From Candidatus Woesebacteria bacterium GW2011_GWB1_39_10 (GTDB taxonomy: Bacteria; Patescibacteriota; Microgenomatia; UBA8517): a DNA stretch of 64,000 nt. Location of the stretch: positions 117,079 through 181,078 of the forward strand of contig LBVU01000002.1 in the NCBI GenBank assembly GCA_000993205.1. The letters run 5' to 3'. Under the pieces are notes generated by a model that was not told the DNA's origin, did not search any database, and saw nothing but the letters and a program-made list of their open reading frames with translations. A program made the position numbers and the translations under genes. This document shows, in pieces, positions 14,934 to 63,556 of this stretch (position 1 is the stretch's first letter; the number at the start of each line of letters is the position of its first letter).

Positions 14934-14965
14934 AATTGTAAATTGTAAATTGTAAATTGTAAATT
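14934..14965. repeat. Intergenic tandem octamer (AATTGTAA)x4
   Basis: aattgtaaattgtaaattgtaaattgtaaatt; reverse-complement copy caatttacaatttacaatttacaa at 39589-39612. Confidence 0.8.
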
Positions 14966-15518: not shown

Positions 15519-18239
15519 CTAGTTTTTAAGGGCAAATTCCGCCTTTAATCCCAGTCTACTATATAGTTTTGTTAACTCCACCACATCGTTAGGGTTTAGA
15601 GTCATTAAGTAATCAAAAAATCCTACACCAAATTTACCGTCTATCACCTTTTTCGCCTCATCTTCAGCTTTCTGGTCGCCAATCCTAGCTAACATCAAGT
15701 TGTCATATAGGCCATGTTTTTTTGTGCCCGTTTTCTCAATTAGCATTCTTAAAGGTAAACCGGCGGCATTGAGATATGACATAGGTGAATCTGCTTGACC
15801 GATAAATCGCTCCTTATACAGAAAATTATAATACGTAATTGACGAAAGCGCTTCTTCCAGAAATCTGCCCCTAACTTTTACATCAGGATTATCATAATCA
15901 AAACTATTTTGGAAAGCACGAACAAATCTCTTTTCTCCATTAAATTCAATAAAATGCCTGCCAGTACTATGGAATAACTCCTCAAACAACCTGTCTAAGT
16001 CATCTAATACGAATTTCTGGTCATTTTTCAAGATTGCAAAAGCAATATTTGTATTAGCCCTGTATAACCCTTTCGGTTCGTATTCTGGGTCCAACTCACC
16101 AATCCGAACACCCGCTCTAAAAAATCTATCCGCATCTGCTTCAGATACTATATAAAGTTCACAGCCTTTATAATCTACGCCTAACGGCACATTTTGCTCA
16201 AGAAAATCTTGAGCTTGTTTTTTAATTATTTCCACTCCTGGCATGGCTTCGTCGAAGGCCTCATAAAACGCTTTTGTCCTGTCAATCAAAAAAACTTCGT
16301 GCTCATCTTTTTTCACCGGATCTTCAACAAAATCAGGATAGCTCTCGGGCCTGGGAAGTAAAACTTGAATGGCATCTAAGTCTTCTGGCTTTAGTTTTTT
16401 TTCAAATGATTTTACTGAATCGTAGCCAACAAATTTACTAACTTTCCCCATAATTTGCTTTACCAATCTTCCGGCCAGCCAATCAAGCGTTTCTTTCTCG
16501 CCAAGGTCCCCGCCATCCATGTCAAACTCACTCCCCCCAGGTGCCATACTTTTTACTTTTTCTACAAACTCAAGTGGATTATCCTTATCATGCATCGCAG
16601 CGTAATAAGGTGAATCTACCTGGTCAGCCAGTTCAAGCATTCTTTTTAGAAGATTATCCTTCTTTTCGATGTTTTCAATCTTTAAAAGTTTTCTTGCCAA
16701 AACAAGCCAGTAAATTCCCACATCCATTTTTAAGGACCCCCTGGGAATTACAAGGGTGTCAACTTTCCCAGAAATTAAGGACATATACATCCTAGAAAGC
16801 GCCCTCGGCGTGGGAAACCTAGTTTCACGCACGTAGAAAAAATCCACAGGCCCTGCACCCTCAAGTAAATAATTTGCCCCAATATTTATTACATGTGTTC
16901 CGAAAATGTTTCTTACAGGGTCCGCTGAAACTTGGGACGATTCCTGAAGGTAGCTGGCAAGCGCGTTTAAAGAAATTACTAAACCGTCTTTGGTAAAAAG
17001 AACTTCGTTCAAGGTTTGGTCTCTATCCCCCAGATAAAGTGTATAACCTGTCGGGCCTGTTGAGTTAATTCTTTCGACGTCTTTCGGATCAACTCCGTAT
17101 TTATCTTTTAAAACATTCAGCTCAAATTCATGGTCTATTTTGCCAAAAGTTACAAGATCTAAGTCAGATAGGGGGAGTTCGGCATCTGCTGACAGATTAA
17201 AAAGTATCTTTGCGACAACCCTTGCAAGTCCGCCCTTAATTGCCACTTCGCCATTTACATTTCTTTCTGGCAATGGGTATTCAAAAGTTCCCATTTTGGA
17301 ATGTATAGTTAATTTTTTGTCACTTAAAAAGATTGTGGTAGAACCTGATTGAGCTCCCTGGAACTCTGTTATTGGAATTAATATACCTTCATGGTTTGCT
17401 TCTTTTTGAGGCCCAACTAAAATATCTGATTGAAAATGCATAATATTCAAAACAAAGTCATAGTTAATCAAACTTTCGACTGCTAATTCCGACCTGTCAG
17501 CCGTAGCCAAACGATATTCTAGATATTCTATAAGCGGACTTATATACTTCTGGCAAAAAATCTTCTTAGGATCATTTGCTTCGTCTCCTTCGATAGCGTA
17601 GACACCGTTTCGAACTGCAACCAATCCTTTCAACATGGTTTTTGGATAATCTGCTACAGATTCGACTCCATGTAGACCAGCCAGAAACTTCTCTGTTAAA
17701 GCAGTTTCGTAATAGGTTTTAATTTTTTCTCGCTCACTTTCGCTTAACCCTTTAAAAACTGTTTCATCTAACTGATTCGGAACCTTTGGCTTTTTATCTA
17801 GTTCTGACAATGCATAACTTAAATCAGTCTTTTCAGCAATGGATGCAATTCCCCGAACGGCATCTACTTTGTTTTCAAAAGTTAGATAACGATCACCGCC
17901 TTCTTCATTTTTTTCAAATCCGTAAACGGCATATGGGCCAAAAAATCTAGCAATCTCAAGCTTTACACCTTTTCGTTCCATCGAGGCTACAACATCTTCA
18001 GACAACGGGCCGTCGCTTATTAAACAAGGCTCGTAAACCAAATGGGAAAGTTTTTGTAAAACCTGTGGAGTTAATTCTAAAGGTGGCAATAGCTCCTCCC
18101 CAGTATCAATATTTAATGACTCGCTATCTACTAAGCTAAAAAGTCTTGGATCTGGTTCTTGCACTAAAACAAGTAACGGCTTCGTTAATCCATGAAGTTC
18201 TTCTTGAGATATTTGTTGTTCAGTAAATTGTTCCCCCAT
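15519..18239 (-). CDS. large hypothetical protein (906 aa); possible nucleotidyltransferase-fold segment
   Basis: Uninterrupted 2.7-kb ORF; segment IKGGLARVVAKILFNLSADAELPLSDLDLVTF resembles the GlnE/GlnD/Pol-beta NTase signature G[GS]...SD[IL]D[LI] but with a long spacer. Confidence 0.55.
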   Translation of the reverse strand: MGEQFTEQQISQEELHGLTKPLLVLVQEPDPRLFSLVDSESLNIDTGEELLPPLELTPQVLQKLSHLVYEPCLISDGPLSEDVVASMERKGVKLEIARFFGPYAVYGFEKNEEGGDRYLTFENKVDAVRGIASIAEKTDLSYALSELDKKPKVPNQLDETVFKGLSESEREKIKTYYETALTEKFLAGLHGVESVADYPKTMLKGLVAVRNGVYAIEGDEANDPKKIFCQKYISPLIEYLEYRLATADRSELAVESLINYDFVLNIMHFQSDILVGPQKEANHEGILIPITEFQGAQSGSTTIFLSDKKLTIHSKMGTFEYPLPERNVNGEVAIKGGLARVVAKILFNLSADAELPLSDLDLVTFGKIDHEFELNVLKDKYGVDPKDVERINSTGPTGYTLYLGDRDQTLNEVLFTKDGLVISLNALASYLQESSQVSADPVRNIFGTHVINIGANYLLEGAGPVDFFYVRETRFPTPRALSRMYMSLISGKVDTLVIPRGSLKMDVGIYWLVLARKLLKIENIEKKDNLLKRMLELADQVDSPYYAAMHDKDNPLEFVEKVKSMAPGGSEFDMDGGDLGEKETLDWLAGRLVKQIMGKVSKFVGYDSVKSFEKKLKPEDLDAIQVLLPRPESYPDFVEDPVKKDEHEVFLIDRTKAFYEAFDEAMPGVEIIKKQAQDFLEQNVPLGVDYKGCELYIVSEADADRFFRAGVRIGELDPEYEPKGLYRANTNIAFAILKNDQKFVLDDLDRLFEELFHSTGRHFIEFNGEKRFVRAFQNSFDYDNPDVKVRGRFLEEALSSITYYNFLYKERFIGQADSPMSYLNAAGLPLRMLIEKTGTKKHGLYDNLMLARIGDQKAEDEAKKVIDGKFGVGFFDYLMTLNPNDVVELTKLYSRLGLKAEFALKN

Positions 18240-18882: not shown

Positions 18883-18905
18883 AACATCATCGTGTCGTTC
18901 TAGAC

Positions 18906-18962
18906 CTTGTCATTCTGGAGTCCCGCCCTGCGGGACGATAGAATCTTATTAGTATAGAATCT
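18906..18962. mobile_element. MITE-like palindromic intergenic element, copy A (inverse orientation, core about 45 bp)
   Basis: cttgtcattctggagtcccgccctgcgggacgatagaatctta is the reverse complement of 41148-41192. Confidence 0.6.
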
Positions 18963-18966
18963 AACT

Positions 18967-19263
18967 ATGATATCAAAAAGTTACTATATATACATCCTCA
19001 CTAATAAATATAACAAAGTCTTATATATTGGTGTCACAAACGACCTGATTAGAAGAGTTTATGAGCACAAAAAACATTTTATTGAAGGCTTCACTCAAAA
19101 ATATCATGTCGACAAATTGGTTTATTACGAGATGTTTGACGATCCTCTAACAGCAATTAAAAGAGAAAAAACTCTAAAAAATTTGTTAAGGAGAAAAAAG
19201 GAAGAACTAATAAACAAAATGAATCCTATGTGGAAAGACTTATATGAAGAAATCTTGAGTTGA
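18967..19263 (+). CDS. GIY-YIG domain nuclease-like protein (98 aa)
   Basis: YYIYILTNKYNKVLYIGVTNDLIRRVYEHK is a canonical GIY-YIG motif. Confidence 0.8.
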   Translation: MISKSYYIYILTNKYNKVLYIGVTNDLIRRVYEHKKHFIEGFTQKYHVDKLVYYEMFDDPLTAIKREKTLKNLLRRKKEELINKMNPMWKDLYEEILS

Positions 19264-19264
19264 T

Positions 19265-19331
19265 AAGATCCTATCGGCCTTCGGGCCTCCAGGATGACAA
19301 TTGGCCTCCAGGATGACATCCTCAGGATGAC
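19265..19331. mobile_element. MITE-like palindromic intergenic element, copy E (with internal duplication of the CTCCAGGATGACA end)
   Basis: agatcctatcggccttcgggcctccaggatgacaattggcctccaggatgacatcctcaggatgac; same architecture as 41108-41192. Confidence 0.55.
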
Positions 19332-19619: not shown

Positions 19620-21062
19620 TTAATTCCCAAATATCTCTTCTGCAACCTTGATTATATCCTTATCCTTTCCTTCAGTCAAAATTGGTTCAATTTTTGTCTC
19701 TTCAATTATTTTTTTAGCCGGAGGCTCAACCAATGTACAAACGACTCTCGTGGGCGACTGTAAAACTCTGGCAACTATATTCTCTAAAACCTGTCTGTGC
19801 TGTGTATCTTCCAAGCGTTCTTTATGAAATTTGTAATAAACTCCCAAGGTCAGAGTTTTACCATCATAAGCCACTGGGCGAGCAGCCCGAAGTAACGCTT
19901 CGATTGAGGCATTTATTGGTTTTATTGAAGACAAAATAGTATTCCAAATCTCTCCTTCAACCTCCATATTTTCGACAGCCGCCTCAACTGTTTCTACAAC
20001 TTCCTCGACAGAAGTCTTGTCTCCCATGTCCCCACTCTTAGTTATCAGTTCTTCGTTCTTAGTTTCACCTCCACACCATTTTATTACGGCGATCTCGAGT
20101 GGTAATTCTTCGATAGGCGAGTCGGGTACTTGTCGGTTGGCCTCAATCAGGAGTTCTGCCAAAACTATCAGTTCGCGATTTTCTGAAATATCCAAGATAA
20201 TATTTTTGTGTATTTCAATTAGAGCCTGCTTAAGTATTCCTTCGGCACCCGCACCTGCCTCAACTGCGTTCTTAATGTAATTAAGGGCATTATGCAGATT
20301 TTTCTTGTATAGAAAACCGACAAACTCATCTACCCCCTGCGCTTTGCCTTTTTCCAAAAAATTATTACCTTCAACACTAACCTGCTCTAAAAGCTTTACC
20401 GCGTCCCTAAACGATCCGTTGGCGGCGCCGGCGATATCTTCCAAAGTTTTTGGATCAAAATCGAGTTTTTCCCCTTTAATCACACGTGTTAAAGATTGCC
20501 GGATTTCTTCAGAGCTTGCTTTCCTGAACCTGATAAATGTTGTCCTCGACCGGATTGTATCAATAAGTTTTTCCGGATTTGTTGTTGCTAAAATAAAAAC
20601 TACGTGTTCCGGGGGTTCCTCAATGGTTTTGAGAAGTGCATTACTGGCCTCAGTTGTTAACATGTGAGCCTCATCAATAATATATACTTTTTTATTCGCT
20701 TTTACCGGGGAGAGTTTGACGACGTCTCTTAGTGTTCTTACATCATCAATTCCACGGTGAGAAGCGGCATCCATTTCAATTACATCCAAATTATTACCTT
20801 TTGTTACGGAAACACATTGTTCACACTTATCACAAGGTTCATAGCTTTTCACTTTTAGCTTTTCACTTTTAGCTATCTCCTCACAGTTTATTATCTTTGC
20901 CATTATTCTCGCCGCGGAAGTTTTGCCTGTCCCTTTTGGCCCGGCGAATAAGAAAGCATGAGGAATTTTGCCCGAACTTACGATCTTTTTTAATGACTCA
21001 CGAACCTCAGGCAAGTCAAGTTCATCTAAATTATTTGAACGGTATTTTAGATAGAGAGTCAT
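19620..21062 (-). CDS. dnaX: DNA polymerase III subunit gamma/tau
   Basis: AAA+ Walker A GPKGTGKTSAARI, zinc module CEEIA..CDKCEQC; contains in-frame KSEKLKVKS insertion. Confidence 0.92.
   Translation of the reverse strand: MTLYLKYRSNNLDELDLPEVRESLKKIVSSGKIPHAFLFAGPKGTGKTSAARIMAKIINCEEIAKSEKLKVKSYEPCDKCEQCVSVTKGNNLDVIEMDAASHRGIDDVRTLRDVVKLSPVKANKKVYIIDEAHMLTTEASNALLKTIEEPPEHVVFILATTNPEKLIDTIRSRTTFIRFRKASSEEIRQSLTRVIKGEKLDFDPKTLEDIAGAANGSFRDAVKLLEQVSVEGNNFLEKGKAQGVDEFVGFLYKKNLHNALNYIKNAVEAGAGAEGILKQALIEIHKNIILDISENRELIVLAELLIEANRQVPDSPIEELPLEIAVIKWCGGETKNEELITKSGDMGDKTSVEEVVETVEAAVENMEVEGEIWNTILSSIKPINASIEALLRAARPVAYDGKTLTLGVYYKFHKERLEDTQHRQVLENIVARVLQSPTRVVCTLVEPPAKKIIEETKIEPILTEGKDKDIIKVAEEIFGN
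20843..20873. repeat. Tandem repeat (CTTTTCACTTTTAG)x2 inside dnaX, reverse complement of the AAAGTGAAAAG family
   Basis: agcttttcacttttagcttttcacttttagc; encodes AKSEKLKVKS in dnaX. Confidence 0.75.
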
Positions 21063-28340: not shown

Positions 28341-28452
28341 GTCATTCTGGAGCGCTTTGCGCGATATGCTAAGCATTCGCTGCGCGATAGAATCCCAGAC
28401 ATTCCGTTTCCTTTGTCCGCCGCAGATCGGAAGTAATCCAGGAAACCTGACC
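28341..28452. mobile_element. MITE-like palindromic intergenic element, copy B, immediately upstream of rpsB
   Basis: gtcattctggag-cgctttgcgcgatatgctaagcattcgctgcgcg-atagaatc ... ggaaacctgac; ends related to copies A, C, D. Confidence 0.55.
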
Positions 28453-32185: not shown

Positions 32186-32213
32186 TGTTCTACTGTTCTA
32201 GAACAATAGAACA
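32186..32213. promoter_or_regulatory. 28-bp near-perfect palindrome TGTTCTACTGTTCTAGAACAATAGAACA (CTAG core), putative operator of the TrpR-like regulator
   Basis: Identical 28-mer at 63008-63035 and related 20-mer at 63537-63556 flanking the TrpR/YerC-like gene. Confidence 0.55.
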
Positions 32214-34422: not shown

Positions 34423-35508
34423 TTAGGCCTTTTTAAAAACCCCCTGGCCTAAATTTCTAACCATTCCTTTCATTTCCATAATGGTAAGTCTAGCAGACAC
34501 TTCACTTGTAGCGCCACCTGATATTCTAACAAGCTCGTCAAGATGCAGGGGCTCTGTCATCAATATTTTTAAAATTTTCTCTTCATACACATCTCCCGGC
34601 ATAACTTTTTTGACTGCTTCTTTATCTACCTTAAATTGCAAATGAAGTTCGTCCAAAATGTCCTTTGTGGAAGTTGCCAACTTACTACCGTTCTGAATTA
34701 AATAGTTTGGAGCCTCTGAAGTCGGTGAAGTTATTGGGCCCGGCACCGCAAAAACAGTGCGCCCCTGATCTGCCGCAGCCTTAACGGTATAAAACGTCCC
34801 ACTTTTCATTCTTCCCTCAACAACGATAACCGCTTTAGATAAACCAGAAATTAGTCTATCTCTCACCGGAAAATCGTAAGGATGAGGCTCATAACCCAAA
34901 GGGTTTTCGGAAACGACAGCGCCTCCGTCCTTTGAAATAAACTCAAGAGCAAGTTTTTTATTTGTATAGGGAGAGATGATGTCCAACCCCGACGCAAGTG
35001 CTGATATGGTCCGTCCGCCAACAGAAAGCGCCGCTCTTTGAGCTTCCGCGTCCACCCCAAGCGCCAAACCGGAAACGATGGTAACACCAAAACTTGCGAG
35101 TTCCCCAGCAAACTTTTTGGCTACCTCGCGACCGTAAGAAGTCATCATGCGCGATCCCACTATGGCAACTGCGTTTGAATCTGTATTTTTAAAATTACCC
35201 CGAATATACAAAACGAATGGCGCGTCAGACAAACCTTTAAGATTTTCCGGATAATCGTCGTCAAAAATCGTTACAACTTTTATTGAAAGTTTTTCTAGTT
35301 TTGAAAGATAATCTTGAATATTGAAAGAATCCCTATGCTTGATAAATTTTTCAGCAGTTTCTTGTTTGACACCAACTTCTGTTAATTCTGACAATTTGAG
35401 ATCCCAAATCTTTTTGGCAGATTTGAAGTAAGAAAGAAGAAGTTTTGTCCTCGCCGGACCAAACATTGTAAAGGTGTTTAGAGCAGTTAAATATTCTTTT
35501 TCGGTCAT
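34423..35508 (-). CDS. dprA: DNA-processing protein DprA
   Basis: Rossmann-like GLALGVDAEAQRAAL region typical of DprA/Smf. Confidence 0.85.
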   Translation of the reverse strand: MTEKEYLTALNTFTMFGPARTKLLLSYFKSAKKIWDLKLSELTEVGVKQETAEKFIKHRDSFNIQDYLSKLEKLSIKVVTIFDDDYPENLKGLSDAPFVLYIRGNFKNTDSNAVAIVGSRMMTSYGREVAKKFAGELASFGVTIVSGLALGVDAEAQRAALSVGGRTISALASGLDIISPYTNKKLALEFISKDGGAVVSENPLGYEPHPYDFPVRDRLISGLSKAVIVVEGRMKSGTFYTVKAAADQGRTVFAVPGPITSPTSEAPNYLIQNGSKLATSTKDILDELHLQFKVDKEAVKKVMPGDVYEEKILKILMTEPLHLDELVRISGGATSEVSARLTIMEMKGMVRNLGQGVFKKA

Positions 35509-37118: not shown

Positions 37119-37251
37119 CGAATTATTCTAACATTAAAAAGAAGTATGTCTAACTCACTATATTGATATGTACCAATATAGTGTCGGCAACAAATCTGAC
37201 TTAGAATTGTACCATTGTTACATAACAATGGTACAAAACGTCAATTTATTA

Positions 37252-38406: not shown

Positions 38407-40524
38407 ATGATTAAATTACAAAAAATTATTTTCATTCTTTTTGCAATTCTTTTTTTCTTCGTTCCTTTAGTTTTGTGGCCGTATACATCTGAAGTTTTTG
38501 AATTTAACAAAATAGTCTTGGTATACATATTTACGGTTTTGATAGTTGCCGCATGGTTTGCAAGGACTGTCCTTGCACAAAAGATAATATTTCGTCGCAC
38601 AATATTAGATATACCACTTTTGGCATTTTTAGCTTCGCAATTTAGCTCAACCATTCTTTCGATAGACCCATCAACTTCTTGGTTGGGATATTATTCCAGG
38701 TTTAACGGCGGACTGCTTTCTACTATTTCCTATTCCCTACTTTATTGGGCCTTCGTTTCCAACTTAGACCGAAAACACGCCCTATATACTATATATTATA
38801 TACTTGCCTCCGCCTCGCTTGCTTCTGTTTACGGCGTATTAGAGCACTTCGGCATCGATAAAGCCCTCTGGGTTCAGGATGTTGCTTCCCGTGTATTTTC
38901 TACTCTTGGACAGCCGAATTGGCTGGCGGCGTTCCTCGTCGCGCTCCTGCCTATTACATGGGCTTTGGCGCTCACAAGATTCCAGATTCCACAACGAAGT
39001 TGGTTACGTAATTCCAGATTCTTGATACATTTCTTGCTTTCGATCCTATTTTTTTGGACATTAATATTTACCAAATCAAGATCGGGGCTTTTAGGATTTG
39101 GTGTAGCATTTCCGATTTTTTGGATGGGATATTTTTGGCTAAACCGAAAAAGTTTCTTGAAATGTCTTTCCCCTTTTGCCATTATTAGTTCTTCACTATT
39201 AATTATTAGTTTAATTTCCGGTACTCAATATACTCCCAACCTATATAACTTCTTAATTAAAACCAATAAAGGCTTGCCGGCCGAAACCCTGGTGAAGGCT
39301 GGGCCGGCTCTTGAAGTCGGTGGAACCGAGTCCGGTACTATCCGGAAAATCGTATGGCGCGGGGCTATCGAAATATGGAAACAGTACCCGATTTTTGGAA
39401 CAGGCGTCGAAACTTTTGCTTTTTCTTACTACCAATTTAGGCCCGTCGAACACAATTTAGTCTCCGAATGGGATTTTATTTACAACAAAGCACACAATGA
39501 GTACCTTAATCTCGCAGCCAATACAGGTAGTTTTGGATTAATTGCCTATTTAGTTCTTGTTAGTTTCTCGATATATCAAATGATTAAGAATTTACAATTT
39601 ACAATTTACAATTTACAAACAAATTCTAAGTTTGAAAATTTCAAAAATGAAAATTTATTGAAAATTGGTAATTGGAAATTGGTAATTCTCGGCCTCTTGG
39701 CCGGTTATACAAGTCTTCTCGTAACCAATTTTTTTGGTTTTTCGGTCGTTCCAACCCAACTCCAGTTATTTTTATTTCCGGCGATAGCGATTATTTTAGC
39801 TAAAAGTGAAGAGGTAAAAGTGAAAAGTGAAACGATAAATACCAATCAAAAAGTTCTAATTCTTATAACGCTCTTAGTTCTTAGTTATTCGCTTTTCGTT
39901 ATCGGCAAATATTGGTATTCCGATACTCTTTATGCCAAAGGTAAGGGATATAACAGCATTCAACGACCGGATGCCGCCATCAACTATTTAGTCCGGGCTA
40001 CTAATATGAAACCCAACCAACCACTATTTCACAGTGAGTTGGCAAACTCATACGCGGCCATGGCGCTTGCTCTTTATAACCAGAAAGACATAAATGGATC
40101 TAAAAAGTATGTCGATTTGGCAATTAGCGAATCAGACAAATCTGTTACCCTTTCTGCCTCTATGCTGAATTTAAAAAGATCGCGTTTTGGAGTATTCGTA
40201 GTGCTTTCAACTATAAATCCGAACCATCTTCTTATTGCCCAAGAAACTTTAATTGATGCTATAACATTTGCTCCAACCGATGCAAAACTTTATTACAATT
40301 TAGGTCTGACCTACGCAAGAACCGGCCAACCGGACCGCGCAATTGAAATTCTAATTAAAACAATCGGTTTAAAAGCCAATTACAGAGACGCAAGGCTTGC
40401 ATATGCATATCTCTTAATTGACAAGAACAAGAACACTGAGGCAAAAGAACAACTCGGATATATTCTTAAATCTATCGACCCCAACGATTCACTTGCCAAA
40501 CAGGCGCTTGAGAGCATCAAATAA
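38407..40524 (+). CDS. O-antigen ligase (Wzy_C) family membrane protein with C-terminal TPR repeats
   Basis: RKIVWRGAIEIWKQYPIFGTGVETF matches the R..W....P.GxGxG.F ligase motif; about 10 TM helices; TPR-like C-terminus; contains three in-frame oligo repeats. Confidence 0.75.
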   Translation: MIKLQKIIFILFAILFFFVPLVLWPYTSEVFEFNKIVLVYIFTVLIVAAWFARTVLAQKIIFRRTILDIPLLAFLASQFSSTILSIDPSTSWLGYYSRFNGGLLSTISYSLLYWAFVSNLDRKHALYTIYYILASASLASVYGVLEHFGIDKALWVQDVASRVFSTLGQPNWLAAFLVALLPITWALALTRFQIPQRSWLRNSRFLIHFLLSILFFWTLIFTKSRSGLLGFGVAFPIFWMGYFWLNRKSFLKCLSPFAIISSSLLIISLISGTQYTPNLYNFLIKTNKGLPAETLVKAGPALEVGGTESGTIRKIVWRGAIEIWKQYPIFGTGVETFAFSYYQFRPVEHNLVSEWDFIYNKAHNEYLNLAANTGSFGLIAYLVLVSFSIYQMIKNLQFTIYNLQTNSKFENFKNENLLKIGNWKLVILGLLAGYTSLLVTNFFGFSVVPTQLQLFLFPAIAIILAKSEEVKVKSETINTNQKVLILITLLVLSYSLFVIGKYWYSDTLYAKGKGYNSIQRPDAAINYLVRATNMKPNQPLFHSELANSYAAMALALYNQKDINGSKKYVDLAISESDKSVTLSASMLNLKRSRFGVFVVLSTINPNHLLIAQETLIDAITFAPTDAKLYYNLGLTYARTGQPDRAIEILIKTIGLKANYRDARLAYAYLLIDKNKNTEAKEQLGYILKSIDPNDSLAKQALESIK
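39589..39687. repeat. In-frame tandem repeats (CAATTTACAA)x3 and (GAAATTGGTAATTG)x2 inside the O-antigen ligase-like gene
   Basis: aatttacaatttacaatttacaaa 39589-39612 and gaaaattggtaattggaaattggtaattc 39654-39687. Confidence 0.75.
39798..39832. repeat. AAAGTGAAAAG-family tandem repeat in frame (encodes EEVKVKSET)
   Basis: agctaaaagtgaagaggtaaaagtgaaaagtgaaa. Confidence 0.75.
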
Positions 40525-40567: not shown

Positions 40568-41101
40568 ATGATCAGAAAGATAATTCAATCGGGTAACCCG
40601 ATTTTAAGACGAAAATCCAAAAACATTGCCAAGGTGGACAAAAAGGTTCAGGAGATAATCAGGGATCTGAAGGATACATTAAAGACCCAAAAAGAACCGG
40701 AAGGTGTGGGCCTGGCAGCTCCCCAAATCGGCAAGAATCTGAATATCTTCATTGCTAGCTACAAAAATTTTCAACGAGTGGTAATAAACCCTGAAATTTT
40801 GAAAATTTCAGGAGCTAAAAGTGAAAAGCTAAAAGTGAAAAGTAAGAAGGAAATACTCGAAGGCTGCTTGTCACTTCCTTATTACTACGGACCTCTAAAA
40901 CGAGCGGATAAAATCACCGTTAAATATCTAAACGAAAAAGGAGAAGAAATTACGGAAGATTTAGAAGGTTTTGATGCTCAAATAATTCTTCACGAAATTG
41001 ATCACCTTGAGGGAAAATTGTTCATCGACAGACTTTTTGAAGAAAAGAAACCCTTGTATAAAGTTGATGGAGATGAATGGGAAGAGGTGGAGCTTTCGTA
41101 G
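40568..41101 (+). CDS. def: peptide deformylase
   Basis: EGCLSLP and HEIDHLEG metal-binding motifs; def-fmt pair; carries in-frame KSEKLKVKSKK insertion. Confidence 0.92.
   Translation: MIRKIIQSGNPILRRKSKNIAKVDKKVQEIIRDLKDTLKTQKEPEGVGLAAPQIGKNLNIFIASYKNFQRVVINPEILKISGAKSEKLKVKSKKEILEGCLSLPYYYGPLKRADKITVKYLNEKGEEITEDLEGFDAQIILHEIDHLEGKLFIDRLFEEKKPLYKVDGDEWEEVELS
40813..40842. repeat. AAAGTGAAAAG-family tandem repeat in frame inside def
   Basis: agctaaaagtgaaaagctaaaagtgaaaag. Confidence 0.8.
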
Positions 41102-41107
41102 GAAAGC

Positions 41108-41192
41108 GACATCCTGAGGCGGCAGCCGAAGGATCCTGTCAATATTAAATAAGATTCTATCGTCCCGCGTTGCGGGACTCCAGAATGACAAG
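41108..41192. mobile_element. MITE-like palindromic intergenic element, copy C (85 bp, between def and fmt)
   Basis: gacatcctgagg...gaaggatcct...aataagattctatcg-tcccgcgttgcggga-ctccagaatgaca; imperfect TIRs GTCATCCTGAG / GTCATTCTGGAG. Confidence 0.65.
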
Positions 41193-41200
41193 ATAACATT

Positions 41201-42046
41201 ATGAAAATAGTATTTTTTGGCACACCGGATTATGTTCTTCCTGTTCTTACCACCCTTCACAAGAAGTTTGTATCTGGACCGGGAAAGTCCCCAATTGTTG
41301 CTGTGGTTACCCAAAGTCCCAAACCAACCGGCAGAAAACAATATCTAACGTATTCTCCGGTAGACAAATGGGCTCATGAACGCAAAGTTTTTACACATTA
41401 TTCGGCCGAGGAACTAATTGATGCCAATCTTGATACGGAGGTCGGGATTCTGGCCTCCTACGGACAGATTATTTCTAAAGAGGTAATAGATTTATTTCCC
41501 AAAGGAATACTTGTAATCCATCCGTCTCTTTTGCCAGCATATAGAGGCGCTTCCCCCATTCAGGCGGCAATTACAAACGGTGACACTCAAACTGGTGTCA
41601 CGATATTTAAGATGGATGAAAAGATTGACCACGGCCCAATCGTCTCTCAGTTTAAGGAAAATATTCACCTGAATGATACATTTGAGACTCTCCGGATACG
41701 ACTTTTTGAAAGGTCTGCAGAAGTTTTAGCAGAACTTATCGAACCTTATTTAAAGGGTAAAATTAGTTTAAAAACACAAGATGAAGGCGGTGCCACCTAC
41801 ACCAAAATCGTCAAGAGAGAAGATGGATTTGTTGATCTTAAAAAAGACAGTCCCGAGAAAATCGAACGATTGTCCCGTGCAATGTATCCCTGGCCCGGCA
41901 TTTGGACCTATTTGCCTAACGAAAAGCGCCTCAAAATCCTTAAATGCCACCTCGAAGATGGTAAGTTGATTCTTGATGAAGTCCAGTTGGAAGGCAAAAA
42001 TCCTGTGAGTTGGAAGCAGTTCACAGAGGCATACCCAGAGCCGTAG
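41201..42046 (+). CDS. fmt: methionyl-tRNA formyltransferase
   Basis: MKIVFFGTPDYVLPVL and HPSLLPAYRGASPIQ formyltransferase motifs. Confidence 0.88.
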   Translation: MKIVFFGTPDYVLPVLTTLHKKFVSGPGKSPIVAVVTQSPKPTGRKQYLTYSPVDKWAHERKVFTHYSAEELIDANLDTEVGILASYGQIISKEVIDLFPKGILVIHPSLLPAYRGASPIQAAITNGDTQTGVTIFKMDEKIDHGPIVSQFKENIHLNDTFETLRIRLFERSAEVLAELIEPYLKGKISLKTQDEGGATYTKIVKREDGFVDLKKDSPEKIERLSRAMYPWPGIWTYLPNEKRLKILKCHLEDGKLILDEVQLEGKNPVSWKQFTEAYPEP

Positions 42047-42962: not shown

Positions 42963-43586
42963 CTTTTTCACATTGACTTACATGGTACAATTATATTGAC
43001 CCTGTTAAAGAAGGATGCGGTCGGAATTTCCTGATCAAGTATATTCTAAAATGGGAGGACGGAGTCCGTTAAGTAATGCGCAAGCTAGCTTGATGGCAGT
43101 TCACCCACCTGGTTTTTCCAGGAATATCGCCGTACTTTTGATAGCAGGGTCACTTTTTTGCCTGAGAACAAAAACAGGGGTCAATCTTTTTCAAAACAAG
43201 GCACTTCGGCATTGTACAAGAGCGAAGTGCCAAAGAGGATATTATGCCTGTGTAAGTTTATTTAGGCTTTGGTTGCAGGAATCTCTGTCGGTGTACTGGG
43301 GAGGGAAGTTAGCTGTACTTGTTTTAATTGTACCTGCCTTTGCCTAGCTAATTCGGCGGTCCTGTAATCTAGAACTTTTTCCATATCTTGTTTGTTTTGA
43401 CCTTTCGGTTTTTTAATGGCCGTCTTGGACAGATCCGAAAGGGTTTGAGTACACCGAGGCGGCCATTTAAGATCTAAAAAGAAAATTTTTGTGTTTTTGG
43501 GTACAAAGGAATTCTCGCCGACACTTTGCGGAGGCGCAGGCTTTAGGCCGAGCCGGCCTGCCCTGCCGATCTGACTTCCATTTCAG

Positions 43587-46273: not shown

Positions 46274-46344
46274 ACAAAGTTCGACTGTGTCCTTCTGAAG
46301 CTTTAGCGGAAGAGGATTCTATCCACCCCTGCAAGATAGCCTGC

Positions 46345-56990: not shown

Positions 56991-57021
56991 AATAACTAAG
57001 AGCTAAAAAGTAAGAACTAAT

Positions 57022-57051
57022 AGCTTTTCACTTTTCGCTCTTCACTTTTAG
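57022..57051. repeat. AAAGTGAAAAG-family repeat (reverse complement) encoding the C-terminal KLKVKSEK of RNase HII and forming an imperfect hairpin with 57000-57021
   Basis: agcttttcacttttcgctcttcacttttag opposite agctaaaaagtaagaac. Confidence 0.65.
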
Positions 57052-57720
57052 TTTGTTGAGCCAAGTGGCGACGAAGGCTTTCCTGTGCAATTTAGTCGCT
57101 CCATATTTTTTGATGGCATTTTGGTGTTCTTTTGTCCCATACCCTTTGTTTTTACCCCATTTGTAAACTCTAAATTTTGGATTTTTGGAGATTTTTACCA
57201 TTAGTTTATCCCGATAGACTTTGGCGACAATTGAGGCTGCTGCGATTGAAATCGATTTCGTATCCCCTTTAATAATGGCCTTTTGGTTTTTTCTTCTTAG
57301 ACTCCTTACGTAAGGTATGAAGAAGGCGTCAATGAGTAGATACTCGATACTGGATACTTTGATACTCACACTTTTGATCGCTTTACGGAAAGCTATTTCT
57401 GAGGCTTTTTTTATCCCAAACCGATTTATTTGTGCCACACTTGCCTGTCCGATTCCAATCGCAAGTGCATTTTGCCGTATCCATTTATCTGCAACTTTCC
57501 TCTGTCTTGGAGTAAGTTGTTTTGAGTCGTTGATAATTATTTTGCGATTACCTTTCAAGACCGTGTCTTTAAAGGTGGTTATAGTATTTCTGTCAAAGAC
57601 AACACATCCTGCCACAATTGCGCCGGCAAAACAGCCTCTACCTACCTCATCCATACCGGCAACAACCTTAAAACCTTTATTCCACAGCTTCTTTTCAAAG
57701 GAGAAATCCGGAAGTGTCAT
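57028..57720 (-). CDS. rnhB: ribonuclease HII
   Basis: VAGMDEVGRGCFAGAIVAGCVVF catalytic N-terminus; contains in-frame SSIEYLLID insertion and KVKSEK tail. Confidence 0.88.
   Translation of the reverse strand: MTLPDFSFEKKLWNKGFKVVAGMDEVGRGCFAGAIVAGCVVFDRNTITTFKDTVLKGNRKIIINDSKQLTPRQRKVADKWIRQNALAIGIGQASVAQINRFGIKKASEIAFRKAIKSVSIKVSSIEYLLIDAFFIPYVRSLRRKNQKAIIKGDTKSISIAAASIVAKVYRDKLMVKISKNPKFRVYKWGKNKGYGTKEHQNAIKKYGATKLHRKAFVATWLNKLKVKSEK
57339..57367. repeat. GATACT(C/G/T) heptamer tandem x4 in frame inside rnhB
   Basis: gatactcgatactggatactttgatactc. Confidence 0.75.
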
Positions 57721-59071: not shown

Positions 59072-59500
59072 ATGGCCAGAAAAGTAAAAACAATCGTTAA
59101 GATCAATTTAAAGGCGGCTGAGGCAACCCCAGCCCCTCCTGTGGGAACAGCGTTGGGACAACACGGCGTTGCCATTATGGAGTTTGTTAAACAGTATAAT
59201 GATAAGACTAAAGATCTTAAAGGTCAGGTTGCTCCGGCTGTAATCACGATCTACGACGACAGAAGCTTCACTTTTACTATCAAAAGAGCACCTGTTGCCG
59301 ATATGATCAAAAAAACCTTGGGTATAGAAAAAGGTTCCGGTAAAACCCCAAGGGAAACCGCAGGAACTCTAACCCGCGAAATGGTCAAAAAGATTGCCGA
59401 GGAAAAGTTGGAAGACTTAAATACTAAAGATGTAGAAGCTGCAATGAAAATCGTAGAAGGAACAGCAAGAAGTATGGGAGTGACGGTAGCGTCATCCTGA
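59072..59500 (+). CDS. rplK: 50S ribosomal protein L11
   Basis: PAPPVGTALGQHGVAIMEFVKQYN conserved L11 N-terminal domain. Confidence 0.93.
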   Translation: MARKVKTIVKINLKAAEATPAPPVGTALGQHGVAIMEFVKQYNDKTKDLKGQVAPAVITIYDDRSFTFTIKRAPVADMIKKTLGIEKGSGKTPRETAGTLTREMVKKIAEEKLEDLNTKDVEAAMKIVEGTARSMGVTVASS

Positions 59501-59563
59501 GTTTTACGAAGGATCCTATTAATATAACAAAAGATTCTATCGCTAACGCTCCAGAATGACATC
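59491..59563. mobile_element. MITE-like palindromic intergenic element, copy D (overlaps last three codons of rplK, ends 7 bp before rplA)
   Basis: gtcatcctgag-ttttac-gaaggatcct-attaatataacaaaagattctatcg-ctaacg-ctccagaatgacatc; colinear with copy C. Confidence 0.65.
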
Positions 59564-63007: not shown

Positions 63008-63035
63008 TGTTCTACTGTTCTAGAACAATAGAACA
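63008..63035. promoter_or_regulatory. 28-bp palindrome TGTTCTACTGTTCTAGAACAATAGAACA directly abutting the stop codon of the TrpR-like gene
   Basis: Identical to 32186-32213. Confidence 0.55.
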
Positions 63036-63536
63036 CTATTTGCGATATAATTCACTATTCATTTCAGCTATTTCTTTATCTATTACCTCTTTTTCCGACA
63101 TTTTCTCAATTAGCTCTTTGGGAGTTTTATCTTGTTTCTCTGCTACAGCATATTGCCCAGTGGCTAACAGTAATTCCGGTAAATGAAATTCAATCGGACC
63201 ATGTGGAATTTTGGTTGGTTTGCCCCATTTTAATGGCAACTTCGCGATCGCCTTCTTAAATCCATTTCCACCTTTTTCCAACCAAATGTTAACTTTATTC
63301 ACAGTTCCCAAACTTGAATGAGTTTCCCGAACGACTTCACGCTGATGTTTGCCAGAGAGCAATAGTTTGGCTATACGAAGCCTTATTGAAAGAATTTTTA
63401 TTTCGTTGGCGGTAAGCAGATCCTCAAGGAAATCCGCTATTTCAGAAGCATTTCTTAAGTCCTTAAATGAGTTTACCAAATCAAACATCAAACTTACCTT
63501 TTCCTCGTTTCCTAATTTTTCCGCTTTCTGTTTCAT
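63036..63536 (-). CDS. TrpR/YerC-YecD-family DNA-binding protein with C-terminal extension
   Basis: FLEDLLTANEIKILSIRLRIAKLLLSGKHQREVVRETHSSLGTVNKVNIWLEKGG matches the Trp-repressor-like family pattern. Confidence 0.7.
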   Translation of the reverse strand: MKQKAEKLGNEEKVSLMFDLVNSFKDLRNASEIADFLEDLLTANEIKILSIRLRIAKLLLSGKHQREVVRETHSSLGTVNKVNIWLEKGGNGFKKAIAKLPLKWGKPTKIPHGPIEFHLPELLLATGQYAVAEKQDKTPKELIEKMSEKEVIDKEIAEMNSELYRK

Positions 63537-63556
63537 TGTTCTAGAACATTAGAACA
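63537..63556. promoter_or_regulatory. Palindrome TGTTCTAGAACA plus TTAGAACA directly abutting the start codon of the TrpR-like gene, putative auto-operator
   Basis: Shares the 12-bp CTAG-core palindrome with 32186-32213 and 63008-63035. Confidence 0.55.

Follow-up and report, generated by a model that had tools for sequence, protein, structure and literature searches.

Introduction

Small hairpin repeats that flank the gene of a single-domain GIY-YIG nuclease, and that are the targets of this enzyme, were described as the Ssn/SRM system by Chenal et al. (2025, Nat Commun 16:2388; PMC11893778), mainly in Neisseria and in RefSeq reference genomes. Here we report on a family of hairpin repeats, two of which bracket a small nuclease gene, in a stretch of 64,000 nucleotides from Candidatus Woesebacteria bacterium GW2011_GWB1_39_10 (contig LBVU01000002.1, positions 117,079 to 181,078). 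This whole stretch is referred to as the window; related loci are designated by L and a number. Judged from sequence comparisons, the repeats are probably SRMs, namely the cognate single-stranded DNA (ssDNA) recognition hairpins of an Ssn-family GIY-YIG nuclease encoded at 18967-19263, a reading to which we assign a probability of roughly 0.85.

In Neisseria, the repeat (NTS; CGTCATTCCCGCGMAVGCGGGAATCYRG) flanks ssnA, which encodes a 94-amino-acid single-domain GIY-YIG protein (CDD cd10448), and homologues of ssnA have at least one SRM nearby in 71% of cases and SRMs on both sides in 42% (PMC11893778). SsnA binds the hairpin solely as ssDNA and cuts a few nucleotides upstream of it, in the variable flank; the enzyme is inactive on double-stranded DNA (dsDNA), on RNA and on the reverse strand, and it does not bind RNA (PMC11893778). 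The three nucleotides that precede the palindrome matter most for cleavage and the C that follows it for binding, while the identity of the loop is irrelevant (PMC11893778). SsnA of N. meningitidis lowers transformation by NTS-bearing DNA, and the enzymes characterised so far stem from Neisseria, N. elongata, N. wadsworthii and Wolbachia (PMC11893778). The NTS-ssnA-NTS arrangement was likened to an insertion sequence (IS) and to REP/RAYT systems as a hypothesis only (PMC11893778); our search for literature on Ssn/SRM after Chenal et al. (2025) found none.

Repeats of the same class had been catalogued in 2013 as CGTC-tagged REPs, including dRS3 of Neisseria and RPE-4 and RPE-6 of Rickettsia (Di Nocera et al., PMC3733652). 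They 'apparently lack a dedicated transposase', and no RAYT or IS200 gene flanked by CGTC-type repeats was reported (PMC3733652). Minimal GIY-YIG domains of the kind considered here were placed near Slx1 in a classification of 2006, among vertically inherited repair enzymes and not among selfish elements. The repeats of the Ssn/SRM system number in the hundreds.

A GIY-YIG nuclease gene bracketed by inverted hairpins

The features of the repeat family and its gene in the window are as follows.

18909-18945, plus strand: copy A, left-end hairpin of the gene-bearing unit; GTCATTCTGGAG-TCCCGCCCTGCGGGA-CGATAGAATC, outer stem ATTCT/AGAAT
18967-19263, plus strand: ssn-like gene for a 98-amino-acid single-domain GIY-YIG nuclease (Pfam PF01541)
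19267-19298, minus strand: inner part of copy E, right-end hairpin; GTCATCCTGGAG-GCCCGAAGGC-CGATAGGATC, outer stem ATCCT/AGGAT
19299-19331, minus strand: two truncated, 'stuttered' heads beyond the right-end hairpin; GTCATCCTGGAGGCCAATT and GTCATCCTGAGGAT
28341-28394, plus strand: copy B, solo hairpin with a long inner stem-loop (from sequence and DNA fold)
41108-41135, plus strand: left hairpin of copy C; GACATCCTGAGG-CGGCAGCC-GAAGGATC, ATCCT stem, T to A mutation in the head
41153-41189, minus strand: right hairpin of copy C, between def and fmt; ATTCT stem (from sequence and DNA fold)
46289-46323, plus strand: possible degenerate sixth hairpin (weak); GTCCTTCTGAAG..GAAGAGGATTCTATC, 19 nt past a tRNA gene
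59491-59515, plus strand: left hairpin of copy D; ATCCT stem, provides the final two codons of rplK and its TGA stop (..GVTVASS-stop)
59533-59560, minus strand: right hairpin of copy D; ATTCT stem, head 9 nt from the rplA start codon

The open reading frame (ORF) at 18967-19263 is enclosed by two hairpins in inverted orientation, and the tail of the right-end one starts 3 nt past the stop codon. The full unit thus consists of a left hairpin with an ATTCT stem, the ssn gene and an inverted right hairpin with an ATCCT stem, with the GTC heads of both hairpins facing outward. PF01541 spans residues 6-78 of the 98-amino-acid protein (E = 6e-16), and the AlphaFold model (pLDDT 90.7) displays the GIY-YIG beta-beta-alpha-alpha-beta-alpha topology. 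Among 22 homologues, Y9 and Y20 are invariant and E67 is nearly so; the spacing of these three residues (11/47) is that of the catalytic residues Y6/Y17/E64 of SsnA. No other GIY-YIG ORF of such kind is present in the window, and NCBIfam and PADLOC gave no meaningful assignment. The protein belongs to a very large family (at least 8,000 clusters at E <= 1e-5). A bridge to the published system is provided by locus L140, whose protein is 64% identical to that of the window and whose gene carries GTCATTCCCGCGAAAGCGGGAATCCAG on both flanks, a sequence that agrees with the NTS consensus at 27 of 28 positions.

The best Foldseek match of the protein is 1ZG2, followed by Slx1-Slx4, both ahead of UvrC, a ranking that agrees with the placement of 2006. 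We had entertained the idea of an Slx1-like, cruciform-cutting nuclease with homing-type spread and dropped it because the published biochemistry is confined to ssDNA, with no activity on dsDNA, and thus makes cruciform cutting unlikely.

Two further observations concern the surroundings of the gene. In the stretch that leads from the left hairpin to the start of ssn, the tail word occurs a second time (TATAGAATC at 18937-18961 of the window; GATAGAATC at 2430-2465 of L224), and the TAGAAT of the second tail word stops 6 nt before the ATG in the window and in L224 alike; this TAGAAT could be the -10 box of a leaderless transcript. On the minus strand at 15519-18239, beside recR, lies an ORF of 906 codons whose product has no Pfam match at E <= 0.001; in some population contigs it is called shorter, with 856 amino acids in L003 and with 693 in L008 and L009, whose contigs stop within it.

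Hairpin modules as the unit of repetition

With at most one mismatch allowed, the window contains the head word GTCATYCTGRRG ten times, as compared with 1.35 +/- 1.14 times in 100 dinucleotide-preserving shuffles, none of which reached ten. The five copies (A to E) that the initial annotation had recognised are hence real. Its alignment of copies C (41108-41189) and D (59491-59560) as colinear holds as well (86% identity across a 36-nt core), as does the inverse orientation of copy A, which is 93% complementary to the right half of C over 45 nt. What had been taken for a palindrome of about 80 nt proved to be composite: the element that recurs is one hairpin, a module of 25-54 nt, and both C and D contain two of these modules as a doublet, inverted and joined tail to tail with the GTC heads outermost. 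Copies A and B consist of one module each, and the homologous part of B, originally extended to 28452, stops at 28394. Copy E had been described as carrying a duplicated end; extra heads are indeed present, and its actual make-up is one full module followed by two truncated heads (19306-19317 and 19320-19331), the last base being shared with the ybaB stop codon.

Each module begins at its 5' side with an unpaired GTC and the first strand of an outer stem of 5-6 bp, which reads ATTCT(G) or ATCCT(G). An internal loop of G·A pairs (2x2) then leads to an inner stem-loop that is rich in GC and variable, after which the second strand of the outer stem and an unpaired C complete the module at the 3' side. 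Folds calculated with DNA parameters gave this same ssDNA shape, with GTC and C unpaired, for all seven clear modules of the window; the left module of C has GAC in place of GTC. These conserved GTC and C residues are the positions that are critical for cleavage and binding in the study of Chenal et al. (PMC11893778). Copy A folds as DNA at -9.9 kcal/mol (z = -3.9), and none of 200 shuffles was equally stable, while the fold of the candidate sixth hairpin at 46289-46323 was no better than that of shuffles. In each of the seven clear modules the GTCAT strand folds slightly more stably than its complement, and the purine-purine G·A loop is confined to this forward strand; by analogy with SsnA, both properties would be consistent, if only indirectly, with ssDNA-only, strand-specific binding and cleavage by the protein encoded in the window.

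Both doublets, C between def and fmt and D between rplK and rplA, combine one stem of either end type, and the inner stem arms of the right hairpin of C match those of copy A. Doublets C and D therefore look like the unit minus its gene, and B like a solo hairpin. With their inverted hairpin ends, small size (82 nt for C and 70 nt for D), multiple copies and absence of a gene, C and D have the inverted repeats, the dimensions and the lack of an ORF expected of a MITE (miniature inverted-repeat transposable element). The statement of the initial annotation that the element lacks coding capacity is accordingly right for C and D and wrong for A and E, which are the ends of a unit with a 98-amino-acid GIY-YIG ORF.

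Three side observations touch these hairpins. Positions 41097-41187 give a sub-threshold match to the Rfam family chrB-a (21.5 bits versus a cut-off of 43.9) that stems from the common string GAGGCGnCAGCCGAAGnATC; the chrB-a motif itself may include an SRM-like hairpin. ATGACA, which is complementary to the hairpin head, resembles a -35 hexamer by its score and is directed outward toward recR (18886-18913, minus strand) and fmt (41185-41213, plus strand). The counts of such hexamer matches are not above the shuffled expectation, and they are a mere hint of the outward promoters known from IS elements.

Hairpins and nuclease form one co-evolving unit

We collected 80 metagenome loci encoding relatives with 53-67% identity to the protein of the window and searched them with a simple hairpin rule, namely GTCAT plus any three nucleotides, followed by the complementary three nucleotides plus ATC, with nothing else fixed. 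Of the 80 loci, 65 had a hairpin within 200 nt upstream of the gene and 72 had one downstream; 60 had hairpins at both ends of the gene. Usually the gene is preceded by a forward hairpin whose end lies about 22 nt from the start codon and is followed by an inverted hairpin that begins about 2 nt past the stop codon. The 171 kb of sequence yielded 304 hairpins, as compared with 5.6 after block-shuffling and 1-10 with permuted head or tail words. Outside the GTCAT and ATC preset by the search, T occupies position -1 in 70% of these modules, and TC follows the tail in 70-71%.

When heads were defined without requiring a tail, the tail complementary to the head was found for 194 of 218 TGC heads, 21 of 23 TCT heads, 18 of 21 CCT heads, 14 of 14 CGC heads, 6 of 6 TCC heads and 3 of 3 TTC heads, and cross-type tails were almost nil. 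The published NTS equals the generalized module of this sample with a TCC/GGA stem. The tree of the nucleases and the type of hairpin correspond to each other, and left and right ends are consistently distinct. Members of the window's own clade (L131-L133) have the ATTCT stem ahead of the gene and the ATCCT stem behind it; in L224 the ATTCT stem is likewise on the recR side and the ATCCT stem downstream of the gene. Collectively, these data show that the hairpins and the gene are one co-evolving unit.

Adjacent modules are joined tail to tail in 125 pairs and head to head in 46, and the TCT and CCT types occur in 20 mixed versus 8 same-type pairings. Loss of the gene by deletion, in a unit whose left and right ends differ, would be expected to leave such mixed TCT and CCT doublets behind. 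About 10% of the modules have truncated, 'stuttered' heads on their outer side (28 versus 276 full ones), mostly 3' of the gene.

These loci also bear on the proposal that the repeats are a classical MITE moved by a DDE transposase, or a REP/REPIN moved by a RAYT. The inverted ends, small size, multiple copies, doublets and insertion polymorphism (see below) are what such elements would have. In the window as in 60 of the 80 unrelated loci, however, the gene inside these same ends codes for a GIY-YIG nuclease and not for a recognised transposase; no clear target-site duplication is found at C or D; no RAYT or IS200 gene is known to be flanked by CGTC-type repeats (PMC3733652), and the tag is (C/T)GTC and not GTAG. 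The argument against a RAYT rests on the flanked gene and the tag in the window and the sampled loci. A transposase-driven origin is, in our view, hardly credible. The classification of the repeats as MITE-like or REP-like in the initial annotation remains apt in that they include gene-less, hairpin-ended copies that were inserted, as judged from their presence and absence in relatives; it overlooked the partner gene between A and E.

Empty and occupied sites in relatives

Comparison with close relatives shows that copies C and D and the gene-bearing A/E unit are insertions. The C site is empty in L211, L212 and L216, which include CP066686.1 with an Fmt protein 92% identical to that of the window; def and fmt overlap there, with the junction reading ..CTCGTATGAAAATAG.. 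and an ATGA stop/start overlap in L211 and L212. The same site is occupied by about 100 extra nucleotides in the window and in L213 and L214 (Fmt 93% identical). For copy D, relatives were taken from the 90%-identity cluster of NusG, the only informative one; the corresponding clusters of RplA, RecR, RplK, YbaB and DnaX contained no useful relatives. The rplK-rplA spacer measures 15 nt in L217 and L218 and 6 nt in L219, and their L11 proteins end in GVTVEK-stop; the spacer in the window has 69 nt, and L11 ends there in GVTVASS-stop, the TGA stop codon lying within the hairpin head. The very short spacers to which the initial annotation had drawn attention are thus themselves made by the insertions, since the same gene pairs overlap or are 6-15 nt apart in relatives.

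The site between ybaB and recR is empty in L223 (RecR 86% identical), with a spacer of 15 nt, and is filled in L221 and L222 (RecR 88%) by an unrelated spacer of 137 nt with a possible remnant. L224 (RecR 84%) contains an orthologous unit with a nuclease 80% identical to that of the window and the same outer stems on the same sides. The inner stems of this unit are wholly different from those of the window and still complementary, which fits the published finding that it does not matter what the loop consists of. Relatives were compared over some 80 kb of syntenic DNA, where no further module of this family was found besides copy C (L213 and L214) and the unit of L224. C and D are recent insertions on the scale of the genus.

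Directly in front of the recR ATG, L221 carries ATTCTATTTGATAGAATGAC (2495-2520), which has the look of a hairpin collapsed to its tail plus head and may have been left by excision or decay. A cassette of about 500 nt in L213 (4990-5520), downstream of a peptidase_M50 gene, encodes a different GIY-YIG ORF of 91 amino acids flanked by hairpins of the ACGCG type; the window lacks it and reads at 43176-43200 GGGTCAC, TTTTTTGCC and TGAGAAC in succession. This cassette is a second small GIY-YIG cassette family with presence/absence variation in these genomes.

The absence of the copies from the corresponding sites in relatives marks them as lineage-specific insertions and not as conserved regulatory RNAs. 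A cis-regulatory RNA, or a terminator or attenuator of ribosomal and translation-factor operons, as the initial annotation had considered, would accord with the good folding of the hairpins as RNA, with the location of modules upstream of rpsB, fmt, rplA and recR, at 3-26 nt from the start codons (3 nt in the case of the head of copy B and rpsB) and with the covariation of the stems. Yet the sequences are missing at the same positions in close relatives, an outcome that speaks for a mobile element; the modules occur in both orientations; C and D lie inside the def-fmt and rplK-rplA operons, and neither of them has a module with a hairpin-plus-T-run. The covariation is accounted for by the requirement for a DNA hairpin, and the Neisseria enzyme does not bind RNA. 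The gathering score of Rfam families was reached in the window only by tRNAs and in 14 related loci by nothing. A regulatory RNA or terminator function is therefore very improbable; side effects of the insertions on the stability or translation of mRNA are possible.

Mobile element or resident host system

Gain or loss of the unit and of the gene-less doublets has taken place at orthologous sites, and in this lineage these elements thus behave as would an IS that has given rise to MITE-like derivatives. We tentatively go one step further and propose, at odds that we place just short of even, that ssn genes and their hairpin ends form a still-active class of prokaryotic mobile elements, driven by a nuclease of the GIY-YIG type that is specific for single strands, with distinct ends and MITE-like doublets, which land in the few nucleotides between essential, translationally coupled genes or where these overlap and supply new stop codons, and that the family is far larger than published.

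By analogy with the characterised Ssn enzymes, the nuclease would bind its hairpin only when the GTCAT strand is single-stranded, as during replication, repair or DNA uptake, and would cut a few nucleotides 5' of GTC. The resident enzyme would be expected to recognise the ATTCT and ATCCT hairpins of its host genome. With the heads facing outward, cuts would fall at the two outer boundaries of a unit or doublet, one per strand; nicks or end-processing there might drive the copying of units and doublets and yield the stuttered heads. The hairpins may also tag incoming ssDNA for cleavage, as in Neisseria, and the window encodes DprA (34423-35508).

Several points weigh against these interpretations. 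The nearest solved structures are UPF0213/Slx1-like proteins with modest scores (profile E = 5.5e-7). The published SRM search pattern, HGTCWYN(0-2)YYVSBRHN(0-5)WNVSBRGN(0-2)RNCYNB (PMC11893778), matches none of eight window modules and only four of the 304 sample hairpins, all of the TCC/CCC type. No nuclease gene lies within about 4 kb of any of 120 hairpin loci in species-representative genomes, among the matches listed. The unit is unchanged across ten population contigs, so that no ongoing movement is visible. A target-site duplication at C would comprise at most 2-3 bp (AT or TAT, for which chance is possible); at D none is legible, and the original region of the stop codon has been replaced. 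Forward-strand-only cutting amounts to one cut per strand, which by itself explains neither excision nor insertion.

The SRM pattern is a search tool rather than a biological definition, and it misses the commonest hairpin types of our sample (those with ATTGC and with ATTCT/ATCCT stems). Its failure points to a divergent hairpin subtype in the window and means that membership in the family rests on the common hairpin frame, on the protein and on the bridge provided by L140.

A rival reading is that of a domesticated host system, with fixed sites at which Ssn trims incoming ssDNA and thereby tunes recombination near certain genes, the repeats being no longer mobile and their spread either ancient or due to other enzymes. 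Lowering of transformation with NTS-bearing DNA is the sole demonstrated role of an Ssn protein (PMC11893778); the window has a gene for DprA; all ten population contigs carry an identical unit, and L224 shares the one between ybaB and recR with a divergence close to that of the hosts, which is suggestive of vertical inheritance. Against this stand the absence of C and D from relatives with 92% identity in Fmt or at least 90% in NusG, whose genes overlap or abut, the pairing of one stem per end type in the doublets, as in deletion derivatives of a mobile unit, and the stuttered heads, which point to repeated processing of the ends. Domestication explains the recent insertions of C and D less well, and we regard it as unlikely, while granting it a real share of the odds.

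Distribution across genomes and viruses

A scan for the hairpin pattern with one genome per species gave matches in many phyla among those listed. Chance alone would yield an estimated 4,000 or so matches in the 596 Gb searched, and single matches prove nothing; because chance matches are this numerous, the argument rests on identical 27-mers, on doublets and on covariation. Among the matches listed, identical 27-mers occur in Anaerolinea, Roizmanbacteria, Curtissbacteria, WWE3 and an archaeal metagenome-assembled genome, doublets like C and D are present at about a dozen scanned loci, and the structured matches are mostly intergenic. The pyrimidine/purine pairs of the stem covary in the same set (T-A 64, C-G 41, T-G 3, C-A 18). 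The link between gene and hairpin is visible only when one starts from the gene; since repeats are many and genes few in such a system, the lack of a gene near the 120 hairpin loci comes as no surprise, yet it is not positive evidence.

The hairpin type with an ATTGC stem is common on IMG/VR contigs, with at least 120 stretches as compared with an estimated expectation of about 3, while the ssn gene is rare there (8 loci). Among the IMG/VR contigs L233-L312, which are classified as viral, some (L247, L268, L278 and L309) carry 4-6 ATTGC hairpins apiece.

Other repeats in the window

Four further groups of repeats were noticed. An exact 30-nt repeat, AGCTAAAAGTGAAAAGCTAAAAGTGAAAAG, lies within coding regions (20845-20874, 40813-40842, 39797-39842 and 57016-57057); it encodes ..AKSEKLKVKS.. 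in Def and DnaX, with a similar ..AKSEEVKVKSE.. in a protein with a Wzy_C domain, and its sequence has the look of a repeat inserted in frame within genes. The heptanucleotide TTGTAAA makes up a run of 30 nt at 14936-14965 and, 100% complementary, at 39589-39618, where it lies inside an ORF for a Wzy_C-like protein of 705 amino acids. A family of perfect palindromes of 28 nt, TGTTCTACTGTTCTAGAACAATAGAACA, has members at 32186-32213, 63008-63035, 63529-63556 and 37208-37235, two of which are identical; an operator-like site is one possible reading of it, a further family of repeats another. The segment 12348-12515 is a tandem array of 18-nt plus 12-nt repeats of the GTxGCxGTxGG type, with seven copies in register.

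Implications

In the tiny genome of a groundwater bacterium from the Rifle aquifer that belongs to the candidate phyla radiation (CPR), a stretch of 64 kb contains the gene with its two distinct ends together with the doublets and solo hairpins, and the clean empty sites of close relatives provide comparative evidence for IS-like behaviour. The published motif under-detects the family, and the simpler GTCAT rule recovers hairpins beside about 80-90% of the homologous genes in our sample. The insertions rewrite gene ends, as seen in the replaced C-terminus and stop codon of L11 and in the separation of the overlapping def and fmt genes, which is relevant to annotation and expression. New pairs of Ssn proteins and hairpins are candidate reagents for site-specific cleavage of ssDNA.

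Comparison with known systems

The UPF0213/Slx1-like proteins (PDB 1ZG2 and 1YWL) share with the nuclease of the window the closest solved fold and the format of a minimal stand-alone GIY-YIG domain; they differ from it in sequence (about 30% identity), and Chenal et al. treat Ssn (cd10448) as separate from Slx1 (PMC11893778).

REP/REPIN-RAYT systems resemble the elements studied here in their hairpin repeats, inverted doublets, a small nuclease gene between copies of its own repeat and, if the analogy with SsnA holds, recognition of the hairpin as a single strand. They differ in the enzyme, an HUH tyrosine transposase in place of a hydrolytic GIY-YIG nuclease, and in the tag (GTAG as compared with (T/C)GTC); Ssn cuts only 5' of the forward-strand hairpin, and strand transfer is not known for it.

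Closer still are the CGTC-tagged REPs, which are likewise short palindromes with an unpaired xGTC tag at one end, frequently form dimers, occur across phyla without a RAYT and in some cases are inserted at or within gene ends. No enzyme was reported for them in 2013, whereas a GIY-YIG partner is found here and by Chenal et al. (PMC11893778); moreover, the tag is mostly TGTC here, and the CPR lies outside the five phyla listed in that catalogue (PMC3733652).

With the Ssn/SRM system, the locus shares a single-domain GIY-YIG protein of about 94-98 amino acids with the same Tyr/Tyr/Glu spacing, a gene bracketed by inverted hairpins, the order of unpaired GTC, AT-stem...stem-AT and unpaired C, many extra intergenic copies and the covariation of hairpin and nuclease. 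It differs from it in its host, Candidatus Woesebacteria (CPR, Microgenomates), a group unmentioned by Chenal et al., and in the hairpin itself, the stem of which is in two parts, separated by an internal loop of G·A, with YCT/RGA outer pairs and distinct ends. Gene-less doublets with two ends and empty orthologous sites are found here, while IS-like behaviour was merely hypothesised for the published system (PMC11893778). What is new is hence the CPR host, a hairpin subtype missed by the published pattern, the distinct ends and the comparative evidence of insertion.

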